Below the pieces are notes generated by a model that was not told where the DNA came from, did not search any database, and saw only the letters and a program-made list of their open reading frames with translations. Below, in pieces: positions 30,316 through 43,227 of a stretch of DNA of 64,000 nucleotides. Numbering within the stretch: the stretch's first letter is position 1; each line of letters begins with the position of its first letter. Both the position numbers and the translations under genes were made by a program. Origin of the DNA: an uncultured Candidatus Saccharibacteria bacterium (GTDB lineage: Bacteria; Patescibacteriota; Minisyncoccia; Phycocordibacterales; UBA12088); the NCBI GenBank assembly GCA_964383505.1, contig CAYLHB010000001.1:1232-65231 (forward strand), given 5' to 3'.

Positions 30316-31434
30316 GTGGAAGTATGCGGGAGCATGTACAATGTACCCATGCGCTTGTTTGAGTATCGGTGGGTTGTGTTTGTGCGGCGCCACGCGTCCC
30401 TCATCGCGTTTGTTAGCGGTTTTGCATTTGATGCGCTCACACTCACCCGTATTGACGAGCTCTATGGGCAGGCGGTTTTTCTTTGCTACCTCTTTGTGGC
30501 GGCGGGTACGGTGGTGCTCATACAAGCGGTGGAAGCGGACCGTCGGGTGCCCCGTGTGGTGCGTACGTACCGCGCGTGGCTTCCCGCGCTCGTCCAGTTT
30601 CCCATGGGAGGCCTCCTCTCGGGCTTCGTGCTCTTCTACAGCAAGAGTGCCTCGCTCCTCACGAGCTGGCCCTTTTTAGTGATTCTCATCGCGGTCTTTA
30701 TCGGTAATGAGTTTTTCAAGAGACGCTATGAGCTTTTGGTGTTTCAAATCGGTATGCTCACCTTTGCGCTCCTCTCCTACAGCGCGCTCACCATTCCCAT
30801 ACTCTATGGGGATGTAGGCACCATTCCTTTTCTCTTGAGTGGCCTCTCGGCGCTCTTTGTGCTCGCGCTCGTGTTTCAAGGCATCATGCGCGTTGCGCCT
30901 TCTGCGTACCACACACACTTTCGCTACCTTGTAGGAACTGTGGGTGCGGTGACAATTATATGGAACATTGCTTACTTCACCAACCTCATTCCTCCCGTCC
31001 CCCTCGCACTCAAAGATATTGGAATATTCCACAGCCTCACCAAGGCACCGTCGGATGGGTACCTCTATCGCGTCACATACGAAGCGGCTCCGTGGTACCT
31101 GCCGTGGCGCACGATTGATACCACGTTTCGTGTGGCTGGGGGAGACGGTGCGTACTGTTACTCTGCGGTGTTTGCGCCCACGAGCATTTCCACTCGGCTC
31201 TTTCACAGGTGGGAGTACTACAGCTCCGCGGGATGGGTGACACGCAGTCGTATTCCATGGTCGGTGCAGGGTGGAAGGGACGGGGGGTACCGTTGGTACA
31301 GTGTGAAGGGCACCCTTGAGGAAGGGAGGTGGCGGTGTGTGGTTGAGACCGAATGGGGTGCCGTGCTGGGGGTGGATGAATTTACTGTGCTTCGTGCCGA
31401 GAGTACCCCGCTTCTTGTTGAGACCAGAAAATAG
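30316..31434 (+). CDS. hypothetical polytopic membrane protein with C-terminal W/R-rich soluble domain
   Basis: About 7 hydrophobic helices, then a domain with WEYYSSAGW...YRWYSV. The antisense 396-aa ORF (30676..31866) was judged spurious. Confidence 0.5.
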   Translation: MEVCGSMYNVPMRLFEYRWVVFVRRHASLIAFVSGFAFDALTLTRIDELYGQAVFLCYLFVAAGTVVLIQAVEADRRVPRVVRTYRAWLPALVQFPMGGLLSGFVLFYSKSASLLTSWPFLVILIAVFIGNEFFKRRYELLVFQIGMLTFALLSYSALTIPILYGDVGTIPFLLSGLSALFVLALVFQGIMRVAPSAYHTHFRYLVGTVGAVTIIWNIAYFTNLIPPVPLALKDIGIFHSLTKAPSDGYLYRVTYEAAPWYLPWRTIDTTFRVAGGDGAYCYSAVFAPTSISTRLFHRWEYYSSAGWVTRSRIPWSVQGGRDGGYRWYSVKGTLEEGRWRCVVETEWGAVLGVDEFTVLRAESTPLLVETRK

Positions 31435-31470
31435 GTTCCGCTTTTTACAGGTTAGTGCTACAGTTCCTCC

Positions 31471-33147
31471 ATGTTCTACTCGGAACTCGCGGACGTGCTT
31501 CAAAGAGCGATTGTGTCGCTCGGGTTTGGCGACGTGCCTGTGGAGCTCGCGCACCCTACGGACAGAAGTCACGGCGACCTTACTACCAGCATCGCACTTG
31601 TGCTCGCCCCCACGCTCGATCGTTCCCCGCGTGACATTGCGGAAGCGATTGTGGCAGGCGTGGATGCACCTCCCTATATTGACCGTTTCGAGGTGGCGGG
31701 ACCCGGGTTCATTAATATCTACCTTTCCCGGGAATTTTTCCGAAAGGCAACTGAATCGATTCTTTCGCTTGGTGATGTGTGGGGTAAGGGTACGGCACTT
31801 GCCGGCAGGCGTATTATGGTGGAGCACAGCCAGCCAAATCCTTTCAAGCCGTTCCACATAGGGCACCTCATGAGCAACACGCTCGGCGAGTCCATCTCGC
31901 GTCTCATCGAGTGGTCAGGTGCCGAGGTGCGGCGGGTAAACTACCAGGGGGACGTGGGGCTCCACGTTGCAAAAGCGCTCTGGGGTCTCGCACACCTAAA
32001 AGGAGACCCAACCAGCATTGAAGACCTGGGAAGTGCGTACGTGGAGGGAAACCGCGCATATGAGGAGGATGAGGGTGCGCGGGCTGAAATCGTTGCATAC
32101 AACAAGCTCGTCTACGCTCATGCGCCCGAGATTACGGACACCTACACAAAGGGTAGAGAGGCATCACTCGTGCACTTTGAGGAGCTCTACGCGCTCCTCG
32201 GGAGCCGCTTTGACCATTACTTTTTTGAGAGCGAGACGGCGGAACCCGGGCGTGCGCTCGTGAAGGAGGGGCTCGCGCGCGGTACGTTCACTGAGAGCGA
32301 GGGGGCGATTGTGTTCCGGGGCGAAGCGTACGGTCTCCATACCCGTGTGTTTATCACGAAAGATGGTTTGCCCACCTACGAGGCAAAAGAGCTCGGCCTC
32401 GCCTACAAAAAGCGCGAGAAGTGGGAGTTCGATCTCTCCATTACGACGACCGCGGTGGAGCAGAAGGAGTACATGAGGGTGGTGTACAAAGCACTCTCGC
32501 TTTTGAATCCCGCACTTGGCGAGAAGCTCCTCCATGTGCCGCACGGCATGCTCCTCCTCACCTCGGGCAAGATGAGCTCGCGAAGGGGGAATGTCATCAC
32601 CGGCGAGTCGCTCCTCTCGGAGATGCGCGCGCGTGCGTGGGAGAAAGTGAAAGACCGTGACCTCCCACCGCTTGAGCGAGACACGATACGTGATGCGGTT
32701 GCGGTTGCGGCAATCAAGTACTCAATACTGAAGCAGAAGGCGGGGAAGAATATCATCTTCGACCCGGACGCCTCGCTCTCATTCGAGGGCGATTCAGGCC
32801 CGTATCTCCAGTATGCGCACACCCGTGCAGTATCGGTGCTTGAAAAGGCCGATGCGGAGGGAGTGGTGGCTTTCTGTGAGGTGCCGCTTCCCGAGGTGAC
32901 CGACCTTGAGCGATTGCTCTACCGTTTTCCCGAGGTGGTGGCACGCGCGACGGAGGAGTTCGAGCCCCACCACGTGACAACCTACCTCACGGAGCTCGCG
33001 GGGGTGTGGAACAGCTGGTACGCCGCCGAGCGCATACTTGACGGGTCGTCATTTGCACCCTACAAGGTGGCGCTCGCCACGGCCTTTGCGCATACGATGA
33101 AAAATGGTCTATGCCTATTGGGGATAGAAGCACCCCGTCGCATGTAG
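31471..33147 (+). CDS. argS: arginine--tRNA ligase
   Basis: HIGH variant region SQPNPFKPFHIGHL and KMSK variant KMSSRRGNVI. Length 558 aa. Confidence 0.9.
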   Translation: MFYSELADVLQRAIVSLGFGDVPVELAHPTDRSHGDLTTSIALVLAPTLDRSPRDIAEAIVAGVDAPPYIDRFEVAGPGFINIYLSREFFRKATESILSLGDVWGKGTALAGRRIMVEHSQPNPFKPFHIGHLMSNTLGESISRLIEWSGAEVRRVNYQGDVGLHVAKALWGLAHLKGDPTSIEDLGSAYVEGNRAYEEDEGARAEIVAYNKLVYAHAPEITDTYTKGREASLVHFEELYALLGSRFDHYFFESETAEPGRALVKEGLARGTFTESEGAIVFRGEAYGLHTRVFITKDGLPTYEAKELGLAYKKREKWEFDLSITTTAVEQKEYMRVVYKALSLLNPALGEKLLHVPHGMLLLTSGKMSSRRGNVITGESLLSEMRARAWEKVKDRDLPPLERDTIRDAVAVAAIKYSILKQKAGKNIIFDPDASLSFEGDSGPYLQYAHTRAVSVLEKADAEGVVAFCEVPLPEVTDLERLLYRFPEVVARATEEFEPHHVTTYLTELAGVWNSWYAAERILDGSSFAPYKVALATAFAHTMKNGLCLLGIEAPRRM

Positions 33148-33222
33148 GTACATCGTAATTGGGCCTGTTGCACGACACGGGCGTTACTGTTCGGTTCCTG
33201 CTCCGGGTGGTAGGATTGCGCT

Positions 33223-36200
33223 ATGGCGAAACACGATAAGGAGAACAATGAGGAAGCACGTGCGGTGAGCGAAACCGCGAGGCGAGAGGAAAAGGTGCTC
33301 GCGTACTGGAACGAACACCGTATATTTGAACAAACACTTGATAAAGAAGCCCCGATGGGTGATTTCGTGTTCTACGACGGGCCGCCGTTCGCGACGGGTC
33401 TTCCCCACATGGGCCACCTCCTCGGTTCGTCGGTCAAAGACGTGGTTGGGCGGTATAAGACCATGTGTGGATACCGCGTGCCGCGTCGGTGGGGGTGGGA
33501 CTGCCACGGGCTCCCTATTGAAAATATTGTTGAGAAAAAGCTCGGTCTCAAGACAAAGAAAGAAATACTGGAGCTTGGCATCGACAACTTCAACCGCGAG
33601 GCGAAGGAGGCGGTACTCCAATTTGTAGCTGATTGGAAGCACTACGTGGAGCGACTTGGTCGTTGGGTGGATTTCGATGCTTCGTACAAGACGATGGACA
33701 ACAGCTACATCGAAGCGGTGTGGGGTGCACTCAAGAAAATACATGATGACAAGCGACTCTACGAGGGCACGAAGGTGCTCCTCTACTGCCCGCACTGCGA
33801 GACCCCGCTCTCGAAAGCGGAAATCGCGATGGACAACAGCTACAAAGATGTAACGGAGAAAGCGGTAGTGGCGAAGTTCAAACTTAAAGCCGGACAGAAG
33901 GTGGGGGATCTCACCACCGACGATGCGACGTACATCCTCGCATGGACGACGACCCCGTGGACACTGCCGGGGAATATGGCACTCGCGGTGCGTGCGAGTA
34001 CCGAGTACGGCGTGTACGACACCCCTGCGGGTCGCGTGGTTGCAGCGCGGGAGCGGGCGGAAACCGTTCTTGGTAGCTTGACACCGGCGCACGCGGTTTC
34101 CGGCGAGTCACTCGTGGGGCTTTCGTACGAACCGCTTTATGAGATCCCCAAGGCGAAAGAGGGTGCGAATAAAAAGGTGTGGACCGTGCAAGCCGCGGAT
34201 TTTGTCACAACCGAGGAGGGTACCGGTGTGGTCCACATTGCGCCCATGTACGGTGAGGACGACCATGAGCTCGGCAAAGCGCTCGGACTCCCGTTCGTCC
34301 AGCTCCTCGACCAGAGCGGTCACTACAATGAGGATGCGCCCGAGTTCCTTCGCGGGCTCTACTATAAAAAAGGAAGTGGCGAGGTGCTCCGAGACCTCAC
34401 CTTGCGCGAGCGTGTGTTCCATGCCAACGACCATACGCACAGCTACCCGCACTGCTATCGGTGTAACACCGCGCTCATCTACAATGCGCTCTCGTCGTGG
34501 TTCATCAACATACAGGCGGTAAAGGAGGATATGCTCACAGCAAACGAGTCGGTGTCGTGGTACCCGGAGCACCTTAAGCACGGGCGGTTTCGCAACATCG
34601 TCGAAACCGCGCCGGATTGGACCATCAGCCGCAATCGCTTTTGGGCGAGCCCGCTCCCGATTTGGAAGCATGAGACAACCGGCGAGCTGTTGGTCATCGG
34701 TTCGCTTTCCGAACTGCGTGCGCACACCAAAAAGAGTGGAAACACCTACCTCATGGTGCGCCACGGGGAAGCGGAGAGTAACGTGCTCGGCGTGGTGAGC
34801 ACCGACATCAAGAACGAACACCACCTGACGGCGCGCGGAGAGGAGCAGGTGCACGAGGCGGCAGAGGTCCTTAAGAAGGCGGGTATCACCAAAATGGTAA
34901 GCTCGCCCTTAGTACGCACCTGTGAAACCGCGGAGCGCATCGCGGACATAATCGGCTATGCCAAGGAGGATATTGTCTACGATGCGCGACTCATGGAGTG
35001 GCAGCTCGGGGCACTCAACGGGAAACCGGTCTCGGCCATATGGGATATTTGTCCCACGTACGTCGAACGCTTCACGAACAAGTGTGCGGGAGGAGAGACG
35101 CTCGTCGAGATGAAGCGACGTATCGGCGAGGCACTCTACGAGTATGAAACGACCTACGTGAATGAAACCGTGCTCATTGTGGGCCACGAGTACACGTTGT
35201 GGATGGCGGAGTGTGTGGCACGTGGCGCAGACGTCGATGAGTGCATCGAAATACGGGGAAAGGCAAAGGACTACGTGAAAAACGGCGAGGTGCGCACGCT
35301 CGATTTCGTACCGCTCCCGCACAACGACGAGTTCGAGCTCGACCTCCATCGCCCATACATTGATGAGCTCCCGCTTGTCGCGAGCGACGGCGCGCGGTTC
35401 GTGCGCATACCAGAGGTGGTTGACTGCTGGGTCGAGTCGGGTGCTATGCCGGTTGCTTCCGAACATTTGCTTCACGAACCTTTCAAAAGGCCCGTGCGTT
35501 ATCCGGGCGACTTTATCGCGGAGTACATTGCGCAGACCCGCACGTGGTTCTACTACATGCACGCGATGGGAGTACTTCTCTTCGGCAAAGAGAGCTTTAA
35601 GCACTGTGTAACGACCGGTACGGTACTCGCCGAGGATGGGAGCAAGATGAGCAAGTCGAAGGGCAACTACACCGACCCACTCATCAATATCGACCGTTTC
35701 GGTGCAGATACGCTCCGGCTCTACCTCCTCGGCTCGGTAGTGATGCAGGGCGAGGACATGAGCTTCAGGGACGACGAACTCAAGGAGCTCCACAACCGCT
35801 TTATCAATATTCTTTGGAACACATACACCTTCTACGAGACCTACCGTGATGAGGGTGCTGTGACCCCTCCCAACAAGACTTCACAGAGCACTCACGTGCT
35901 CGACGTATGGATTATCGCCCGTCTCAACGAGGTAGTGCGGCAAGTGACCGAGCACATGGAGCGATACGACACGGTCGTCTCGGTGCGCACGCTTCGCGCG
36001 TTTGTGACCGACCTCTCCACGTGGTACCTACGTCGTTCTCGGGACCGCTTGAAGGGCGTCGAGGGCGTCGAGGCGCAACAAGAAGCACTCTCCACCTTTA
36101 GACACACACTCATTGAACTTTCAAAACTACTCGCGCCACTTGCTCCCTTTATCGCAGAGGATATCTACCGGGGGTGCGGTGCGGAGAAAGAAAGCGTGCA

Positions 36201-36705
36201 CCTTGCGTCGTGGCCTCAAGGTGAGCCATGTGATGATCAGGAAGTGCTCGCGAAGATGGAGGCGACCCGACAGGTGGTCTCTGAAGCACTTGAGCGGCGC
36301 GCTACCGCAGGGGTAAAGGTGCGCCAGCCACTCTCGCGCCTCACCGCACCAGATGTCGCACTACTCTACACGGAACTCATTATGGAGGAGGTGAATGTGC
36401 ACGAGGTAGTGGAGGGAGCGAAGATCGAGCTCGACACTACACTCACTCCGGAGTTGGTGCGAGAGGGCAGGGTGCGCGAGCTCGTGCGGAGCGTCCAAGA
36501 ATTACGAAAATCAGCCAAGCGTGCACCCTCTGATGAGGTGGTGCTCGTGGTGGGTGCGGGTGATGAGGCGCGCCCGCTTGTGGAGGAGGCGCGCGAGCGG
36601 CTCCGCAAGGTCGCGAATGTTACAGAGGTCGTGTACGAAGACCTCCCCGAAGACTCATGTGAGCTTCACCTCGAGACGCTTCGTATGAAACTCGCACTTC
36701 GCTAG
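33223..36705 (+). CDS. ileS: isoleucine--tRNA ligase (type 2) carrying an in-frame internal histidine-phosphatase-like domain (1160 aa)
   Basis: HMGH (PHMGHLLG), CP1 editing domain, ...PIWKHETTGELLVIG, then the inserted domain, then VVDCWVESGAMP and KMSKS (GSKMSKSKGN). The reading frame is continuous throughout. Confidence 0.9.
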   Translation: MAKHDKENNEEARAVSETARREEKVLAYWNEHRIFEQTLDKEAPMGDFVFYDGPPFATGLPHMGHLLGSSVKDVVGRYKTMCGYRVPRRWGWDCHGLPIENIVEKKLGLKTKKEILELGIDNFNREAKEAVLQFVADWKHYVERLGRWVDFDASYKTMDNSYIEAVWGALKKIHDDKRLYEGTKVLLYCPHCETPLSKAEIAMDNSYKDVTEKAVVAKFKLKAGQKVGDLTTDDATYILAWTTTPWTLPGNMALAVRASTEYGVYDTPAGRVVAARERAETVLGSLTPAHAVSGESLVGLSYEPLYEIPKAKEGANKKVWTVQAADFVTTEEGTGVVHIAPMYGEDDHELGKALGLPFVQLLDQSGHYNEDAPEFLRGLYYKKGSGEVLRDLTLRERVFHANDHTHSYPHCYRCNTALIYNALSSWFINIQAVKEDMLTANESVSWYPEHLKHGRFRNIVETAPDWTISRNRFWASPLPIWKHETTGELLVIGSLSELRAHTKKSGNTYLMVRHGEAESNVLGVVSTDIKNEHHLTARGEEQVHEAAEVLKKAGITKMVSSPLVRTCETAERIADIIGYAKEDIVYDARLMEWQLGALNGKPVSAIWDICPTYVERFTNKCAGGETLVEMKRRIGEALYEYETTYVNETVLIVGHEYTLWMAECVARGADVDECIEIRGKAKDYVKNGEVRTLDFVPLPHNDEFELDLHRPYIDELPLVASDGARFVRIPEVVDCWVESGAMPVASEHLLHEPFKRPVRYPGDFIAEYIAQTRTWFYYMHAMGVLLFGKESFKHCVTTGTVLAEDGSKMSKSKGNYTDPLINIDRFGADTLRLYLLGSVVMQGEDMSFRDDELKELHNRFINILWNTYTFYETYRDEGAVTPPNKTSQSTHVLDVWIIARLNEVVRQVTEHMERYDTVVSVRTLRAFVTDLSTWYLRRSRDRLKGVEGVEAQQEALSTFRHTLIELSKLLAPLAPFIAEDIYRGCGAEKESVHLASWPQGEPCDDQEVLAKMEATRQVVSEALERRATAGVKVRQPLSRLTAPDVALLYTELIMEEVNVHEVVEGAKIELDTTLTPELVREGRVRELVRSVQELRKSAKRAPSDEVVLVVGAGDEARPLVEEARERLRKVANVTEVVYEDLPEDSCELHLETLRMKLALR
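34715..35290 (+). other. embedded histidine phosphatase (phosphoglycerate-mutase-like) domain within the IleS ORF
   Basis: TYLMVRHGEAESNVLGV..LTARGEEQVHEAAEVLK..VSSPLVRTCETAERIA..LIVGHEYTLW matches the RHGE...SSPLxRAxxTA...GHE catalytic signature of the histidine phosphatase superfamily. Confidence 0.7.
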
Positions 36706-36708
36706 CGA

Positions 36709-37290
36709 GTGACTATGTACACGCTCATCACCGAACACGCGTTTGTACTCGGGAGTACGCCCGAGGGAGAGGCGAGCCGTGTGCTCTTTCTCCTCACGAA
36801 GTCGCGGGGGCTCATACGGGTCCATGCACAGGGGGTGCGCCTTGAGCGGTCGAAACTGCGCTACCTCCTGTCTGAAGGTGCGTGGGTGCGGGTGACCATG
36901 GTGCGGGGTCGTGAGGTGTGGCGTGTGGTGAATGCGTGTGAAGGGGTGGGTGCCGTGGCAGACAACCGCCTCTATGTGCGCGCGGCTCTGCGCCGTGTGC
37001 GAACGCTTGCGCGAAGGTTGGTGCACGGAGAGGGCGATCAAACGAAACTCTATGCGGTTCTTTCGGATGGGTGCGCGGCACTTGTTGCCTCACCGGACGC
37101 ACGTACACTCCGGCTCCTTGAGGTGCTCCTCGTGGCCCGCATACTCAACACACAGGGGTACCTCAGTGAATCGAACATACGGTCGGGTCTGCTTGAGGGA
37201 ACTTCGTATGAAGGCATCGATATGACTGACTCCGACATGCGGACACTTATTCGCAACGTAAACGATGCACTGCGGGAGTGTCAGCTCTAG
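36709..37290 (+). CDS. recO: DNA repair protein RecO-like
   Basis: N-terminal OB-fold pattern AFVLGSTPEGEASRVLFLLTKSRGLIRVHAQGVR (cf. RecO AFVL..R..E.S...T..G.....AKGAR). Size 193 aa. Confidence 0.6.
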   Translation: MTMYTLITEHAFVLGSTPEGEASRVLFLLTKSRGLIRVHAQGVRLERSKLRYLLSEGAWVRVTMVRGREVWRVVNACEGVGAVADNRLYVRAALRRVRTLARRLVHGEGDQTKLYAVLSDGCAALVASPDARTLRLLEVLLVARILNTQGYLSESNIRSGLLEGTSYEGIDMTDSDMRTLIRNVNDALRECQL

Positions 37291-37309
37291 CTTTGGTATA
37301 CTGGAAGGT

Positions 37310-39283
37310 ATGCTGGAAGAGGAGAGTAGCATCGAGAGAGTGCGCAAGCGCATCTACGCGAAACAGGCACAGAGCACCGTGCATCAGCGCAGGCCGCTCC
37401 ATGAGGAGGCGTACAAGGTTGAGTCGTCGTGGGGTACTAACGAACCCGCCTCGTTGGGCGAGAGTGAGCCGAACGATGTGTCGCGTGCGTACGATCCATG
37501 GACGCTATCAAAGCCGGTGGGTATGTCTGCACGAGCAGGCAGTTCGAGCTTATTGAGAAAGTTTACCGTCATAGTTTTTTCCATAAGTACTCTCTTTTTC
37601 TTGGTCGCGGTTGGCATCGGGGGGTACGTGTACTATACGGGGCGCTCCGAGGTGCGCCCTCCAACCCTCTCGTGGAGCGGCCCTCTATCGGTAGGTGCGG
37701 GGGATGAGGTACTCTACATGCTCACGATACAGAACCCGAATATGGTACCACTCCTCGCGGCTGACCTGCGTGTGCAGTTTCCGCCGGGAGCACGCTCCCC
37801 CAACAACTTCGATGTGGCACTCACTGAGTACCGCGAGACGTTGGGTACTATTGGGCCGCGTGAGAGTAAGACGGCCACGATACGTGCGGTGCTTTTTGGT
37901 CCCGAAGAGGCGACGCAGGCGATTGGAACAACGCTTGCGTATCGGCTCACCGATTCCGAAACCACGTTTACCTCGCACAGCAGTACCACCGTGCTCCTTT
38001 CGCGTGCACCGGTTTCGCTTTCCGTCAAAGGGGTGGAAGAGCATACCAGCGGCCAGCCACTCACTCTTACCGTGGAGCTTGCGAGTAGTGCGAGTAAACC
38101 GGTTCGTGCAGTGGCCCTACGCGCACTGTATCCGCCCGGATTTCAGGTCACCTCTGTTCAGCCGCGCCCGGAGGAGGGCAATGAGTACTGGAAGCTTGGT
38201 GACATGCCGACAGGCACAAAAAAGACTTTCACTATCTCGGGTATACTCATTGGGAATGGAGGTGAGGATCGTGTGTTTCGGTTCGAGGTGGGTCAAGAAG
38301 GCACAAAGGGCTCGCTTGCGGGTGTTCTCAACACTTCAACGTATACGGTAGCGCTCACGCGCCCGTTCCTCGACATTGCCCTTAATCTTGGGGAAGCGAG
38401 TGGCGAGGTGTTGGTGGTAAAGCCGAACTCGACGGTGGCAGGAAGTGTTGGATGGAAGAACAACCTTGCGTATCCCCTTTCGGACGTGGAGGTAGAAGCA
38501 ACACTCAAGGGATCAATTTTGGACAGGCAATCTGTGCAGGTGAGTAATGGGTTCTACCGTTCACTCGATGAGACGTTGGTGTGGACAAAACAGACCGACA
38601 AGAATTTGGAGCTTGTATCTCCCGGTGAGTCGGGCACGCTCAATTTTTCGTTTCAGTCGCTTGGCCTCGCACCTTCGACGGGGGCGCGAAATCCATCAAT
38701 GACTTTAGAGATAAGCGTTCGGGCGAAGCGTATCGGGCAAGACAACGTGCCGGAGACGCTAGAACGGGTGAGTACCCGCACCGTGCGGCTTGAAACGGTG
38801 CTTACACTCTCTCCGCGCGCTGTCTGGAGCGTCGGTCCATTTATAAACAGTGGACCGGTTCCCCCACGCGCAGATCAAACTACCACCTACACTATTCTTT
38901 GGTCACTCACCAACAGTACCAATGAGGCGAAGGATGTCGAGCTTTCAGCCGAGCTCCCCATTTACGTGGAGTGGAGAAATGTCATCTCTCCCGAAGGGGC
39001 GGAGGTGCGGTTTGATGAGACGAGCAGAAAAGTATCGTGGCGCGTAGGTGCAGTAGCGGCCGGCGCAGGGTACGAGTCGCAGGCACCCGAAGTCGCATTT
39101 CAGATAGCGGTTACCCCGAGCGTGGCTCAACAAGGGAGTGAGATATCTCTCATCGAGTCGCAAACCCTTCGCGGAGTTGACCGCTTCACCGGAAGCGTGA
39201 TAGAAACCACGTACCCGGATCTCACCAGCCGTCTTACCACTGACCCTGCGTTTGCAGGTCAGAAAGGTACGGTTTTGCGGTAG
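37310..39283 (+). CDS. hypothetical large membrane-anchored extracellular protein (~658 aa); start uncertain (the ORF opens at 37265 and overlaps the recO end)
   Basis: Cytoplasmic N-tail, TM segment FTVIVFSISTLFFLVAVGIGGYVYY, then a long beta-rich ectodomain. No recognisable catalytic motif. Confidence 0.5.
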   Translation: MLEEESSIERVRKRIYAKQAQSTVHQRRPLHEEAYKVESSWGTNEPASLGESEPNDVSRAYDPWTLSKPVGMSARAGSSSLLRKFTVIVFSISTLFFLVAVGIGGYVYYTGRSEVRPPTLSWSGPLSVGAGDEVLYMLTIQNPNMVPLLAADLRVQFPPGARSPNNFDVALTEYRETLGTIGPRESKTATIRAVLFGPEEATQAIGTTLAYRLTDSETTFTSHSSTTVLLSRAPVSLSVKGVEEHTSGQPLTLTVELASSASKPVRAVALRALYPPGFQVTSVQPRPEEGNEYWKLGDMPTGTKKTFTISGILIGNGGEDRVFRFEVGQEGTKGSLAGVLNTSTYTVALTRPFLDIALNLGEASGEVLVVKPNSTVAGSVGWKNNLAYPLSDVEVEATLKGSILDRQSVQVSNGFYRSLDETLVWTKQTDKNLELVSPGESGTLNFSFQSLGLAPSTGARNPSMTLEISVRAKRIGQDNVPETLERVSTRTVRLETVLTLSPRAVWSVGPFINSGPVPPRADQTTTYTILWSLTNSTNEAKDVELSAELPIYVEWRNVISPEGAEVRFDETSRKVSWRVGAVAAGAGYESQAPEVAFQIAVTPSVAQQGSEISLIESQTLRGVDRFTGSVIETTYPDLTSRLTTDPAFAGQKGTVLR

Positions 39284-39286
39284 GCC

Positions 39287-40648
39287 ATGGTAGCACACAC
39301 GAAACTTGAAGATATCGTCGCACTCTGCAAACGCAGAGGGTTTGTGTACCAGGGGTCCGAAGTATATGGCGGCCTTGCTGGTACATGGGACTATGGTCCG
39401 CTCGGCGTTGCGCTCAAGAACAACATTAAACAACTTTGGTGGCGCATGTTCGTGGACGAGAGAGACGACGTGTATGGTATCGATGCGTCCATCCTTCTCA
39501 ATGCAAAGGTGGTGAAGGCGAGCGGGCACGTCGATACCTTCACCGACCCATTGGTTGAGGATGTGGTGACCAAGCGGAGGTACCGCGCCGACCTCCTTTT
39601 GGAGGATGCGGGAGAAAATCCTGCGGGCCTTTCGCTCGAAGCGCTCAACCGAGCAATTAAAGAGAAAAAGCTCGTGAGTCCTGATGGTAATGCACTGGGC
39701 GACGTGCGCACGTTCAACCTCATGTGCAAGACGTATGTGGGAGCGACAGAGGATGAGTCCGCACTCGCATACTTTAGGCCGGAGACCGCCCAGGGTATAT
39801 TCATCAATTTTAAAAACGTGGTTGATTCCATGCACCCGAAAATACCTTTTGGTATCGCGCAAATAGGGAAGGCGTATAGGAACGAGATAGCTCCAAGAGA
39901 TTTTATATTCAGAATACGAGAACTAGAGCAAATGGAAATTGAGTACTTCGTCCACCCGAACGGGTGGGAAGAGCATTTTGAAATGTGGCGCGGATTAGTG
40001 CACGAGTGGTGTACTCGCATGGGCTTTCAAAGCGGGGCGGTGCATGAGCTCGAGGTTGCGGACCAGGACAGGGCGTTCTACAGCAAGCGCACTATTGATT
40101 TTGAGTACGAGTTCCCGTTTGGTCGCAAGGAGCTGTTGGGACTCGCGTATCGGACCGACTATGACCTCAGAGGACACGGGAGCGCAAGCGGTGTCGATTT
40201 CTCGTACCTTGATGAGAAAACGGGCGAGAGGTTTGTTCCCCATGTGATTGAGCCGTCGTTCGGTGTCGAGCGAGCGTTCCTCGCAGTGCTGACGAGCGCG
40301 TATGCGGTTGATGTACTCGGAGGCGAGTCACGGACGGTACTACGGTTACCTTACGAGCTTGCTCCAGTAAAGGTGGCGGTATTTCCGCTCCTCAAAAACA
40401 AACCAGAACTCGTCGCGAAAGCGCGAGCGGTTGCATCGAGTGTAAAGCGAGTAATCCCCCACACATCGTTTGACGACAACGGTAACATCGGAAAACGGTA
40501 CCGCCGCCAAGACGAAATCGGCACCCCCTACTGCGTGACGATAGACTTTGAGACGCTCGAGAACGACACGGTCACCCTACGAGACCGTGATTCCGGTGCC
40601 CAGCGCCGAGTGCCCATCGCGAACCTGGTGTCGGAACTGATAGCGTAA
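39287..40648 (+). CDS. glyQS: glycine--tRNA ligase (class II, alpha2 type)
   Basis: 453 aa. N-terminus MVAHTKLEDIVALCKRRGFVYQGSEVYGGLAGTWDYGPLG and class II motifs 2 and 3. Confidence 0.9.
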   Translation: MVAHTKLEDIVALCKRRGFVYQGSEVYGGLAGTWDYGPLGVALKNNIKQLWWRMFVDERDDVYGIDASILLNAKVVKASGHVDTFTDPLVEDVVTKRRYRADLLLEDAGENPAGLSLEALNRAIKEKKLVSPDGNALGDVRTFNLMCKTYVGATEDESALAYFRPETAQGIFINFKNVVDSMHPKIPFGIAQIGKAYRNEIAPRDFIFRIRELEQMEIEYFVHPNGWEEHFEMWRGLVHEWCTRMGFQSGAVHELEVADQDRAFYSKRTIDFEYEFPFGRKELLGLAYRTDYDLRGHGSASGVDFSYLDEKTGERFVPHVIEPSFGVERAFLAVLTSAYAVDVLGGESRTVLRLPYELAPVKVAVFPLLKNKPELVAKARAVASSVKRVIPHTSFDDNGNIGKRYRRQDEIGTPYCVTIDFETLENDTVTLRDRDSGAQRRVPIANLVSELIA

Positions 40649-40693
40649 ACAGCTCGCTTTGCAGAATAGGTCGTGCGCGAGTAGAATGCGCTC

Positions 40694-41761
40694 ATGGACC
40701 GGCGAGACATCACCATTTCCATTACACCGAGCAGTGTGGGGCTTGTACTCCTCCTCCTTACCGGCGCGTACGTCGCGTACCTCCTGCGCGATCTCATCCT
40801 TATCGTGTTTACCGCTATTGTGCTCGCCTCGGCAATTGAGCCGTTGGCGCAAAAGCTCGTGAAGTGGGGTTTGGGGAGAATTCTTGCGGTGGTGCTCATT
40901 TACCTCGCATCGGTGGCTCTCTTGAGCGTGTTGTTCTACTTTTTCATGCCGCCGCTTTTACGAGAGGCGAATGCATTCCTCACAATGGCTCCCAAGTACC
41001 TTGAGACATTTGGTCTCAATACGGTTTCCGTGGGTACATCTGCTCAGTCGTTGCCGATCTATGCACAGGACATTCTCAAGCTTCAAGGGCTCCTCTCCGC
41101 TTCGTCGGCCGGTCTCCTTGCGGTTGCGGGCACCATTTTCGGCGGGCTCATATCTTTCTCACTCATCGTTGTGCTCTCGTTCTACTTCGCGGTACAAGAT
41201 CAAGGCATCGATGACTTTTTGCGCCTTGTGAGCCCCGTGCGCCACCAAGCGTACATCCTTAACTTGTGGCGCCGTAGTCAACGGAAAATGGGGCGGTGGT
41301 TTCAAGGCCAGCTCATCCTCTCACTCATTGTGGGTGTGCTCATCTATGTGGGTCTCCTTGTGCTGAGCATTTGGTCTGATGTACGGTACCCATTTCTTCT
41401 TGCGGTGGTCGCCGCACTGTTTGAGCTCATTCCCGTGTTTGGCTCTATTCTCGCCGCGATACCTGCGGTCGCGCTCTCATTTTTCTCGGGCGGTGTGCCG
41501 CTCGCGCTTTGGGTCATTGCACTCTACTTTTTCGTGAACCAAGTGCAGGGGAATGTCATCTATCCGATGGTAGTTCAAAAAGTATTGGGGGTCCCCCCGC
41601 TCGTGGTCATCTTGGCAATCGTTGTGGGTGCACAGCTCGCGGGATTTTTCGGCATCCTTGTTGCGGTGCCTGTCGCGGCGGCATTTCAAGAGTACGTGAC
41701 CGATATCATGAAGCGAAAGGAGCGTGCACTGCTTGAGTCGCGCGCGAGCGACCACGTATGA
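40694..41761 (+). CDS. AI-2E family transporter (PerM/UPF0118)
   Basis: 355 aa with 8 TM helices and the AI-2E topology. Conserved WFQGQL...ILVAVP region. Confidence 0.8.
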   Translation: MDRRDITISITPSSVGLVLLLLTGAYVAYLLRDLILIVFTAIVLASAIEPLAQKLVKWGLGRILAVVLIYLASVALLSVLFYFFMPPLLREANAFLTMAPKYLETFGLNTVSVGTSAQSLPIYAQDILKLQGLLSASSAGLLAVAGTIFGGLISFSLIVVLSFYFAVQDQGIDDFLRLVSPVRHQAYILNLWRRSQRKMGRWFQGQLILSLIVGVLIYVGLLVLSIWSDVRYPFLLAVVAALFELIPVFGSILAAIPAVALSFFSGGVPLALWVIALYFFVNQVQGNVIYPMVVQKVLGVPPLVVILAIVVGAQLAGFFGILVAVPVAAAFQEYVTDIMKRKERALLESRASDHV

Positions 41762-43227
41762 GTAGGCGCGTGTTCGTCACTGCGGCGATTCCCTATGTGA
41801 ATGCCGCTCCCCACATAGGTCACGCGGAAGAGTACGTCTACGCGGATGTGCTCGCGCGGTACCACCGTCTTCTAGGCCACGACACGTTTTTCCTCTGCGG
41901 TACGGATGATAATGCGTTTAAAAACGTGCAAAAGGCAGAGGAGGCAGGAGAGCATGTTGTCGATTACGTGGCGCGACACACCGAGCGCTTTATGTCGCTC
42001 CTGCGTGAGCTCTCAATAAGTAACGACGATTTCATTCGCACCTCAGTCGATGGGCGGCACCGACAAGGCGCCGCGAAGCTTTGGCGGTCGTGCAGGCCCG
42101 ATGATATTTTCAAAAAGAGGTACACCGGTCTCTACTGTGTCGGGTGCGAAGAATTTAAGTTTGAGAAAGATTTGGTGGACGGCTGCTGTCCAGAGCACCC
42201 TCGCGCACGTCTCGAACGTATTGATGAGGAAAACTACTTTTTTCGGTTGAGTATATATGGTGCGCGACTTACCGATATGCTTACCACAGGGGAGCTCAAG
42301 GTGGTTCCTGAGAGCAGAAAGAACGAGCTCCTCGCATTCCTTGCGACCGGCCTTGATGATTTAAGTATCTCTCGCAACAAAGAGCGGATGCGCGGGTGGG
42401 GCATCGAGGTGCCCGACGACCCCTCACAGGTGATGTACGTGTGGCTCGACGCGCTCTCTAACTACATCACTGCACTTGGCTATGCAGATGGGGCACAAAC
42501 CTACCTACGGTTTTGGAAAGAGGCCGATGACATCATCCATGTGATAGGGAAGGGCATCACGCGCTTCCACGCCCTCTACTGGCCGGCATTTCTCCTTTCT
42601 GCGGGCGAGCGCCTCCCCACAAGCATTTTCGCCCACGCGTACCTTACGGTGGACGGCGCGAAGATGAGCAAATCGCTCGGGAACGTGATAGATCCCTTCG
42701 AGCTTATTCAAACCTATGGTGCGGAAGCGGTGCGCTACTTCTTCGCTCGCGAGGTTTCGCCCTTCGAGGATTCCGATGTGACCCACACGCGCTTTCACGA
42801 AGCGTACAACGCAAACCTCGCAAATGGCCTCGGCAATTTCACCGCACGCGTGATGAAGCTCGCGACAACGCATCTCACCGAGCCGATGCAGCTTCGCGAC
42901 GAGGACAAGGCGTTCGACTCGAGGGTGGGTGAGGCGATTGAGCAGTTCGCCTTCAACCGTGCGATGGACATCATTTTTGAGTACATCGGTGAGGGCGATG
43001 CGTACATGCAGGAGCACCAGCCGTACCGAACAATCAAATCACCCGAGACTCACAGTAAGGCCATATTGGATATCGAGTTCCTTACTCGACGTCTCTTTAA
43101 GATTGCTACACAGCTTACCCCCTTCATGCCTGCGACCGCTGAATTGATACGAAATGCAGTTTCTTTGCACCACATGCCACCCGCACTATTTCTTCGAAAA
43201 GAACTACCACCTACCTCGTTTCAATAA
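41758..43227 (+). CDS. metG: methionine--tRNA ligase (core-only form, no C-terminal tRNA-binding domain)
   Basis: AIPYVNAAPHIGHA (HIGH), Zn knuckle CxxC...CC, and KMSKSLGNVIDP. Confidence 0.9.
   Translation: MSRRVFVTAAIPYVNAAPHIGHAEEYVYADVLARYHRLLGHDTFFLCGTDDNAFKNVQKAEEAGEHVVDYVARHTERFMSLLRELSISNDDFIRTSVDGRHRQGAAKLWRSCRPDDIFKKRYTGLYCVGCEEFKFEKDLVDGCCPEHPRARLERIDEENYFFRLSIYGARLTDMLTTGELKVVPESRKNELLAFLATGLDDLSISRNKERMRGWGIEVPDDPSQVMYVWLDALSNYITALGYADGAQTYLRFWKEADDIIHVIGKGITRFHALYWPAFLLSAGERLPTSIFAHAYLTVDGAKMSKSLGNVIDPFELIQTYGAEAVRYFFAREVSPFEDSDVTHTRFHEAYNANLANGLGNFTARVMKLATTHLTEPMQLRDEDKAFDSRVGEAIEQFAFNRAMDIIFEYIGEGDAYMQEHQPYRTIKSPETHSKAILDIEFLTRRLFKIATQLTPFMPATAELIRNAVSLHHMPPALFLRKELPPTSFQ

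Follow-up and report, generated by a model that had tools for sequence, protein, structure and literature searches.

The question raised by this locus is whether an aminoacyl-tRNA synthetase can carry a complete second enzyme nested within one of its own subdomains, and if so what such an enzyme might be doing there. The locus is ileS, the gene for isoleucyl-tRNA synthetase (IleRS), in a 64,000-nucleotide stretch of DNA from an uncultured Candidatus Saccharibacteria bacterium (GenBank assembly GCA_964383505.1, contig CAYLHB010000001.1, positions 1,232 to 65,231 of the forward strand); the whole stretch is referred to as the window, and positions are counted from its first letter. Aminoacyl-tRNA synthetases are a textbook case of domain acquisition, and the domains added to them often reveal editing, signalling or resistance. 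The window IleRS contains an in-frame histidine phosphatase domain, and the product is probably a bifunctional protein in which an intact type-2 synthetase rigidly carries an active phosphatase of the small-molecule type. The locus is significant because a phosphatase that, to judge by its residues, is apparently active sits inside an essential synthetase in a large clade of bacteria that are both ultra-small and uncultured.

A histidine phosphatase domain within isoleucyl-tRNA synthetase

The ileS reading frame (33223 to 36705, + strand) runs unbroken for 1160 codons, as an initial annotation made from the letters of the sequence had noted, and its product exceeds the NCBIfam equivalog cut-off for ileS (TIGR00392, 793.9 bits against 621.4) although the insert splits the match in two. 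The same annotation had claimed a complete in-frame histidine phosphatase domain of about 190 amino acids, and here profile, structural model and fold comparison agree with it. The Pfam family PF00300 (His_Phos_1) matches amino acids 510–675 with an E-value of 6.4e-29 and 101.4 bits against a gathering score of 21.7, the match covering profile positions 2–167 of 194. The domain and the residues on which its catalysis would depend are as follows, conservation being counted here and below over 75 full-length insert-bearing sequences.

34735 to 35310, + strand: histidine phosphatase (branch 1) domain, amino acids 505–696, identified by PF00300, AlphaFold2 and Foldseek
34759 to 34767, + strand: RHG motif, comprising R513, H514 (predicted phospho-acceptor nucleophile) and G515; R513 and H514 in 75/75, G515 in 71/75
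34915 to 34917, + strand: R565, second phosphate-binding arginine, in SSPLVRT; 75/75
34996 to 34998, + strand: E592, predicted general acid/base, in RLMEW; 74/75, with D in one sequence
35185 to 35187, + strand: H655, second catalytic histidine, in VGHEY; 75/75

G596 and R633 are also invariant, and E625 and N520 are retained in 74 and 73 of the sequences, respectively. The nucleophile role of H514 is drawn from the established mechanism of the histidine phosphatase superfamily. Of the motif signature first proposed, the RHG, the SSPL..R and the histidine of GHE stand. The arginine of LTARGEEQ (R538), which had been taken to bind substrate, does not, as the position is arginine in 8 of the 75 sequences and the true second arginine is R565; the acid/base glutamate E592 had been left out.

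An AlphaFold2 model of the domain with its flanks has a pLDDT of 86.5 and a pTM of 0.82, and in a model of the full-length protein pLDDT is 94–97 across the insert and its linkers. The top Foldseek matches of the domain are PspA (4ij6), PhoE (1h2e), GpgP (4qih) and CobC (6nru), with TMt 0.70–0.77; the Foldseek probability is 1.00 to structures of these four and of cofactor-dependent phosphoglycerate mutase (dPGM), and the riboflavin-pathway HFP is also among the nearest folds. By sequence, as by fold, the closest PDB entry is the phosphoserine phosphatase PspA. None of the PADLOC defence models matched the domain.

The synthetase host

In the product of ileS, Pfam gives in order tRNA-synt_1 (in two stretches), His_Phos_1, Anticodon_1 and DUF5915, the last being the type-2 C-terminal domain. 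The top PDB matches by sequence are the type-2 structures 8c8v/8c9d and 1ile, with an E-value of 7e-198 for 8c8v, and structures of IleRS1 match far more weakly (E 4e-91). Amino acids 206–410 match isolated IleRS editing-domain structures such as 1wk8 (E 3e-31). The full-length AlphaFold2 model (pLDDT 90.7, pTM 0.84) superposes on 8c9d/1ile with TMt 0.81–0.92. Three synthetase motifs, whose invariance was counted over 78 homologs, are of particular relevance.

33406 to 33417, + strand: HIGH-type motif of the synthetic site, H62-M-G-H65, read from the sequence; P61, H62 and G64 invariant
33943 to 33969, + strand: CP1 editing motif WTTTPWTLP, amino acids 241–249; all nine residues invariant
35644 to 35658, + strand: KMSKS motif, amino acids 808–812, read from the sequence; K808, S810, K811 and S812 invariant

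Because WTTTPWTLP is invariant, the editing function of the synthetase is probably intact, and the HIGH and KMSKS motifs, the anticodon-binding domain and the type-2 C-terminal domain, as read from the protein sequence, look intact as well. The IleRS part would still activate isoleucine, edit and charge tRNA-Ile.

The insertion point

Alignment to type-2 IleRS, the route by which it had been suggested that the insertion be mapped, pairs query residues 17–502 with residues 9–478 of the chain in the solved Priestia megaterium structure 8c8v, and 703–1060 with 483–845; from these breakpoints about 200 residues stand in for about four of 8c8v. Comparison of the window with insert-less relatives at the site sets the limits of the insert proper at amino acids 505–696, that is 192 amino acids encoded by nucleotides 34735–35310, lying between ..ELRAHTKK and PLPHNDEFELDLHRPYID. 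The domain first proposed thus stands, with limits tighter than had been given since the IleRS flanks reach closer. Across the site the window reads ...ELRAHTKKSGN, then the domain, then DFVPLPHNDEFELDLHRPYID, where insert-less relatives read KPGADLPKNARGELDLH. One of the latter, P0027, reads ...ELKKHMKPGADLPKNARGELDLHLPYID, its loop being KPGADLPKNARG / KPGADLPKN. The insert separates the two halves of the CP3 subdomain.

34642 to 34734, + strand: N-terminal half of CP3, amino acids 474–504, WASPLPIWKHETTGELLVIGSLSELRAHTKK; aligned to 8c8v up to residue 478, zinc-knuckle cysteines lost
35311 to 35421, + strand: C-terminal half of CP3, amino acids 697–733, PLPHNDEFELDLHRPYIDELPLVASDGARFVRIPEVV; aligned to 8c8v from residue 483

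In the IleRS of C. albicans, CP3 comprises residues 473–534, and the subdomain is structurally variable and, in T. thermophilus, zinc-binding (PMC7191050). Window residues 8–501 align with residues 7–498 of the C. albicans protein, which with these CP3 limits puts the insert in the middle of CP3. The site is accordingly peripheral, and its original placement in the catalytic core was imprecise.

The linkers joining the domain to CP3, SGN and DFV, are three amino acids each and have a pLDDT of 94–96 in the full-length model. The junction residues N507, F695, P699 and N701 are conserved in 72–74 of the 75 sequences, and P699, H700 and N701, which follow the insert, in 70–74. The model points to a phosphatase mounted rigidly on the tip of CP3, itself a small excursion from the Rossmann fold, and not flexibly tethered to it.

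The conserved HN at the C-terminal junction is a superficial point in favor of an intein, which the initial annotation had rejected. That rejection was correct: His_Phos_1 is the only Pfam family in amino acids 503–702, with no Hint family, the fold is that of a histidine phosphatase, and the residue after H700-N701 varies (D/K/R/A/S/E), with no conserved Cys, Ser or Thr. Moreover, insert-less relatives have LPKN at this point (LP(H/K)N in general), and so the HN belongs to IleRS.

The zinc-knuckle cysteines of CP3 (CxxC...CxC) are replaced in the window by KHET (amino acids 482–485, 34666–34677) and ASDGA (amino acids 716–720, 35368–35382). They are absent from 56 of the 75 insert-bearing sequences and kept beside the insert in 15; the loss of zinc binding is therefore not tied strictly to acquisition of the insert. 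These counts bear on whether the domain is a pseudo-enzyme, whose fold would survive because it stands in structurally for the lost zinc knuckle, or because tRNA or a partner protein binds to it. The 56 sequences without the four cysteines and the rigid packing of the domain on CP3 in the model are what such a role would lead one to expect. Its difficulty is that knuckle and insert occur together in the other 15, that these cysteines are missing from insert-less relatives such as P0027 as well, and that a purely structural role would not call for the invariance seen in the catalytic residues; a pseudo-enzyme is very improbable.

Authenticity and distribution

An assembly chimera, for which a check had been advised at the outset, is ruled out by an independent Logan assembly, L082 (SRR10095373), and by the same architecture in 80 other genomes. 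L082 is collinear with window positions 30508–39167 at 99.84% identity over 8660 bp, with 14 mismatches and no gaps, and encodes the same 1160-amino-acid protein with three substitutions. The chance that the domain is either a misjoin or an intein is close to nil. A recent horizontal insertion is also rejected: GC content and skew are continuous across 34735–35310 and the same as in the rest of the gene, and deep conservation makes the event ancient.

The search for the same insertion in IleRS homologs of the candidate phyla radiation (CPR), again an initial suggestion, was productive. A genome scan with one genome per GTDB species yielded 596 confirmed relatives, and in all of the best 80 of these, which were inspected, the insert is present and collinear with the query. 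In 74 of the 80 loci the ileS frame is open, stop to stop, for at least 1100 amino acids across the insert; five of the remaining six end at a contig edge and one, L011, stops early, at 1037 amino acids, inside its locus. An exhaustive HMMER search through 1.84 billion cluster representatives (50% identity) found 143 proteins at E<=1e-30, nearly all of which match the query in one stretch over both junctions. PF00300 is listed for all 120 of the best full-length homologs (50–100% identity), and hundreds of proteins from public metagenome-assembled genomes, some from the 2015 GW2011 data, have the architecture with PF00133 and PF00300 precomputed. The sources are named Parcubacteria, Paceibacterota, Kaiser-, Nomura-, Vogel-, Taylor-, Lloyd- and Adlerbacteria, that is, the Parcubacteria group of Patescibacteria. 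The claim of a new IleRS architecture holds in that no paper describing it was found, but the architecture is not peculiar to this genome.

Two insert-bearing records, L039 (QYPD01000003.1) and P0019, carry the labels Spirochaetia and Rectinemataceae. Their contigs are short (8.5 kb and 1.4 kb), and that of L039 has a GC content of 38% and neither argS nor recO nearby. The labels reflect either binning contamination or transfer outside Patescibacteria.

Conservation, decay and loss

Over 74 homologs the mean identity to the window is 43% for the insert, 42% for CP1 and 32% for the C-terminal domain. Compared with the closest genome, L003, non-synonymous divergence (dN) is 0.165 in the insert and 0.18–0.20 in its flanks; synonymous divergence is saturated, at >=1.8 or undefined, in comparisons with even the closest genomes, and so the ratio of the two is unusable and the one informative result is that dN is equal in insert and flanks. 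Selection appears to have kept the domain in a large Paceibacteria/Parcubacteria clade.

Within that clade it has also been lost. The insert-less P0027 is 79% identical to the insert-bearing L065, P0036 is 72% identical to the insert-bearing L033, and P0038 shares 67% identity with both L033 and P0079; for P0027 and P0036 these identities exceed the mean identity of insert-bearing sequences to the window (42–58% by region). P0040 is insert-less too, and what the insert-less fragments leave is a KPGxxLPKNxxGELDLH loop. Decay is seen in P0050, which has a relic of about 110 amino acids at the site without RHG, and in P0014 and P0019, which have internal deletions in the cap region of the domain. 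All of these sequences are fragments, for which gene-calling artefacts are possible. As the insert-less fragments are nested among insert-bearing sequences, clean secondary loss is indicated, and since the domain was cleanly lost in nested relatives, a role essential for aminoacylation is disfavoured. The domain looks like an accessory that is dispensable for aminoacylation.

Could the domain then be a passenger that is simply tolerated, a neutral or selfish element inserted in frame where a surface loop is permissive, and serving no function selected in the host? Loss (P0027, P0036, P0038) and decay (P0050, P0014, P0019) fit this, CP3 is structurally variable among IleRSs, many unrelated inserts occur at four IleRS sites, one of them an IS200-like Y1 transposase domain (P0127), and between the closest pair of strains single-nucleotide polymorphisms (SNPs) cluster in the insert. 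Yet catalytic residues that are invariant in 75/75 when the domain as a whole is only about 43% identical argue against a purely neutral passenger. So do a dN equal to that of the IleRS flanks, retention in at least 80 species and about 143 50%-identity clusters, the undifferentiated base composition, and a segment in which Pfam finds no mobile-element or intein family. A passenger is improbable, if somewhat less so than a pseudo-enzyme.

Nested domains elsewhere in class Ia synthetases

Outliers of the representative search reveal that patescibacterial IleRSs have inserts at four or more sites.

Site A, window residues 504/703: His_Phos
Site B, about 885/891 (nucleotides about 35877–35895), between the catalytic and anticodon-binding domains: His_Phos
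Site C, about 756/761: serine hydrolase (P0191), P-loop kinase (P0195), GNAT (P0176, P0127)
Site D, inside CP1, amino acids about 284–318: GNAT (P0176), IS200-like Y1 transposase domain (P0127)

At site B the His_Phos domain is the sole copy in P0162 and P0191, and P0190 and P0154 have copies at both A and B. The kinase-like domain of P0195 is AAA_18/AAA_33 and stands beside His_Phos; in P0176 and P0127 GNAT and His_Phos inserts are combined. Beyond IleRS, P0164, a valyl-tRNA synthetase (ValRS; NCBIfam valS models best) that runs off the end of its contig, has four His_Phos copies, one before DWCISRQ and three in tandem after WGHRIPVWY, the position homologous to site A in CP3. The second-site and ValRS copies have pairwise identities of about 30–39%, the same as to the free-standing P0048, and a neighbor-joining tree of them is unresolved. 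The copies may have arisen by domain transposition or by independent capture, two origins that the pairwise identities do not separate. That such inserts recur suggests one of two things: selection favours tying these enzymes to class Ia synthetases, or these synthetases are exceptionally permissive; pairwise identities do not tell these apart either.

One step further is the proposal that patescibacterial class Ia synthetases are scaffolds for a nested toolkit of small-molecule-modifying domains, His_Phos, GNAT, serine hydrolase and P-loop kinase, acting on synthetase ligands. Such a toolkit would inactivate aminoacyl-adenylate mimics or IleRS-targeting antibiotics at their target, or repair phosphorylated tRNA ends or a toxin-phosphorylated synthetase, and so amount to target-tethered resistance or repair with His_Phos as its commonest module. 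This is speculative and rather unlikely.

P0048 (177 amino acids, 36% identity) is the closest free-standing relative of the domain that was found. It is encoded on a 5.6-kb contig (L081, 4661–5194), six bases downstream of an RNase Y gene. It was the sole match in a domain-only word-index search, with a tool that seems limited to proteins of about query length; the same limit would explain why an earlier search gave only fragments of at most 510 amino acids.

What the nested phosphatase may do

By analogy with the superfamily, a phosphomonoester would be held by R513, R565, H655 and N520, H514 would attack it to give a phospho-histidine intermediate with E592 as acid/base, and water would then free the phosphate. 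The substrate is most likely a small phosphorylated metabolite or nucleotide, because in size and modelled fold the domain resembles PspA, PhoE, GpgP and CobC, of about 200 amino acids, and not the dPGM mutases or protein phosphatases. The enzyme would act independently of the aminoacylation reaction. The domain reaches the cut-off of no characterised NCBIfam subfamily and so points to no particular substrate: it scores 77.8 against 225 for dPGM_arch, 52.9 against 261 for GpmB, 47.1 against 350 for PspA and 63.1 against 162.9 for CobC (TIGR03162).

Three points weigh against an active small-molecule enzyme that is merely carried by the synthetase. The substrate class is suggested by size and fold resemblance only, with every equivalog cut-off missed. 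The presence of His_Phos at a second IleRS site and in ValRS, together with the rigid mounting, hints at a link to class Ia synthetases. Lastly, five of the six ileS SNPs between the window and the 99.84%-identical L082 fall in the insert, a segment making up 16.5% of the gene, and these cause three amino-acid changes, C567R, P602S and V614A (window 34464–35063 compared with L082). The window C567 is unusual in that the family has K or R there. The cluster could reflect locally relaxed or diversifying selection in the window lineage, or chance with small numbers.

The second of these points leads to the possibility that the phosphatase is mechanistically coupled to the synthetase, its target being encountered at IleRS. 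This target might be a tRNA end with a 3′- or 2′-phosphate or a cyclic phosphate, or else a phosphorylated nucleotide or an inhibitor resembling the adenylate, bound in the synthetic site. The synthetase could also be the substrate when one of its own residues is phosphorylated, for instance in the KMSKS loop, which in other class I synthetases is the target of HipA-type toxin kinases. Three-residue linkers modelled with high pLDDT (94–96), conserved junction residues, the recurrence of His_Phos at a second IleRS site and in the ValRS P0164, the other small-molecule-modifying domains of related IleRSs (GNAT, serine hydrolase, P-loop kinase) and the curation by NCBIfam of an ileS_w_GNAT family can all be read in this sense. 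However, every one of the nearest folds belongs to a phosphatase of small metabolites that has a cap subdomain, none to an RNA-end or protein phosphatase, and we know of no member of the histidine phosphatase superfamily that acts on tRNA ends. Further, no relevant literature was found linking the superfamily to aminoacyl-tRNA synthetases, the domain was cleanly lost in nested lineages without visible compensation, the neighboring genes give no hint, and four copies in one ValRS, three of them in tandem, speak against a single precise geometry. Coupling is possible but doubtful.

A different possibility is that the domain is the cell's dPGM, or another core enzyme such as phosphoserine phosphatase, fused by genome streamlining into an essential and constitutively expressed gene. 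Patescibacteria have a reduced metabolism. The best histidine phosphatase match in NCBIfam is the short archaeal-type dPGM model (77.8 bits), PspA comes top in PDB both by sequence and by fold, and in 27 of 81 loci the second gene upstream encodes serine hydroxymethyltransferase. Against this, the cut-offs for dPGM_arch, GpmB and PspA are missed widely, relatives without the domain would need a replacement enzyme, and the second histidine is in an HE/HG context, without the Asn that typically follows the second catalytic histidine of dPGMs. That the domain is such a core enzyme is unlikely, more so than the toolkit.

Depending on what the phosphatase does, the implications differ. Should it act on tRNA, adenylates or inhibitors, it would be a new accessory activity of a synthetase; should it be an independent metabolic enzyme, it would show that genes in streamlined genomes can fuse in an unusual way, one domain coming to lie inside another. 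A CP3 tip that tolerates an insert of 190 amino acids is a natural permissive site and could serve IleRS engineering.

Relation to known systems

With type-2 IleRSs, the eukaryote/archaeon-like and mupirocin-resistant type represented by P. megaterium 8c8v and T. thermophilus 1ile, the window protein shares all IleRS domains and motifs; it differs from them in the 192 extra residues in CP3 and from the T. thermophilus enzyme in being without its zinc-knuckle cysteines. With the small branch-1 phosphatases PspA (4ij5), PhoE/YhfR (1h2e), Rv2419c GpgP (4qih) and CobC (6nru), the insert has in common the fold, the size of about 200 amino acids including the cap, and the R-H-R-E-H set, but it is only 19–25% identical to them, and they are free-standing where it is nested.

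The CP1 editing domain and the leucine-specific domain of leucyl-tRNA synthetase follow the same principle of a functional module in a loop of the Rossmann fold. In contrast to the insert, they act on aminoacylation and are universal in their families, whereas the insert is a phosphatase without a known link to aminoacylation and is confined to one bacterial clade. A curated precedent for an IleRS with a nested accessory enzyme domain is the NCBIfam family NF040702 (ileS_w_GNAT), which differs in that its insert is a GNAT and, judging by the aligned model positions, lies within CP1. With this model the window protein reaches 298.3 bits, the cut-off being 1999, and no acetyltransferase family is among its Pfam matches.

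Synthetases have been described as preferred hosts for domain insertion (PMC13114784). A literature search on IleRS or other aminoacyl-tRNA synthetases together with histidine phosphatase, phosphoglycerate mutase (PGAM), CPR or Patescibacteria found no description of the present architecture, and another, pairing IleRS with GNAT, turned up no account of an IleRS that bears a GNAT. In a term search of a 2026 preprint on 96,219 IleRS domain architectures, neither CPR nor Patescibacteria was matched and the passages on insertion concerned only INS in ARD2. The architecture is present but unnamed in public databases, and is a new variation of a known kind, the aminoacyl-tRNA synthetase with a nested accessory domain.

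Gene neighborhood

The genes on either side of ileS are as follows.

31471 to 33147, + strand: argS, upstream neighbor (Pfam tRNA-synt_1d, DALR_1 and Arg_tRNA_synt_N); adjoins ileS in 59 of 81 loci
36709 to 37290, + strand: recO-like gene, downstream neighbor (Pfam RecO_N); adjoins ileS in 60 of 81 loci

The order argS, ileS, recO and a surface protein gene is kept in about 60 of the 81 loci, which marks this ileS as a vertically inherited housekeeping gene. In the 81 loci the neighborhood consists of housekeeping synteny only, with no kinase, toxin or phosphate-related partner. Within 12 kb of the window (31471–43227) there are four genes for aminoacyl-tRNA synthetases, namely argS, ileS, a class II synthetase gene with an HGTP anticodon domain (39287–40648) and metG (41758–43227), and ileS is the only one of the four with an extra domain.

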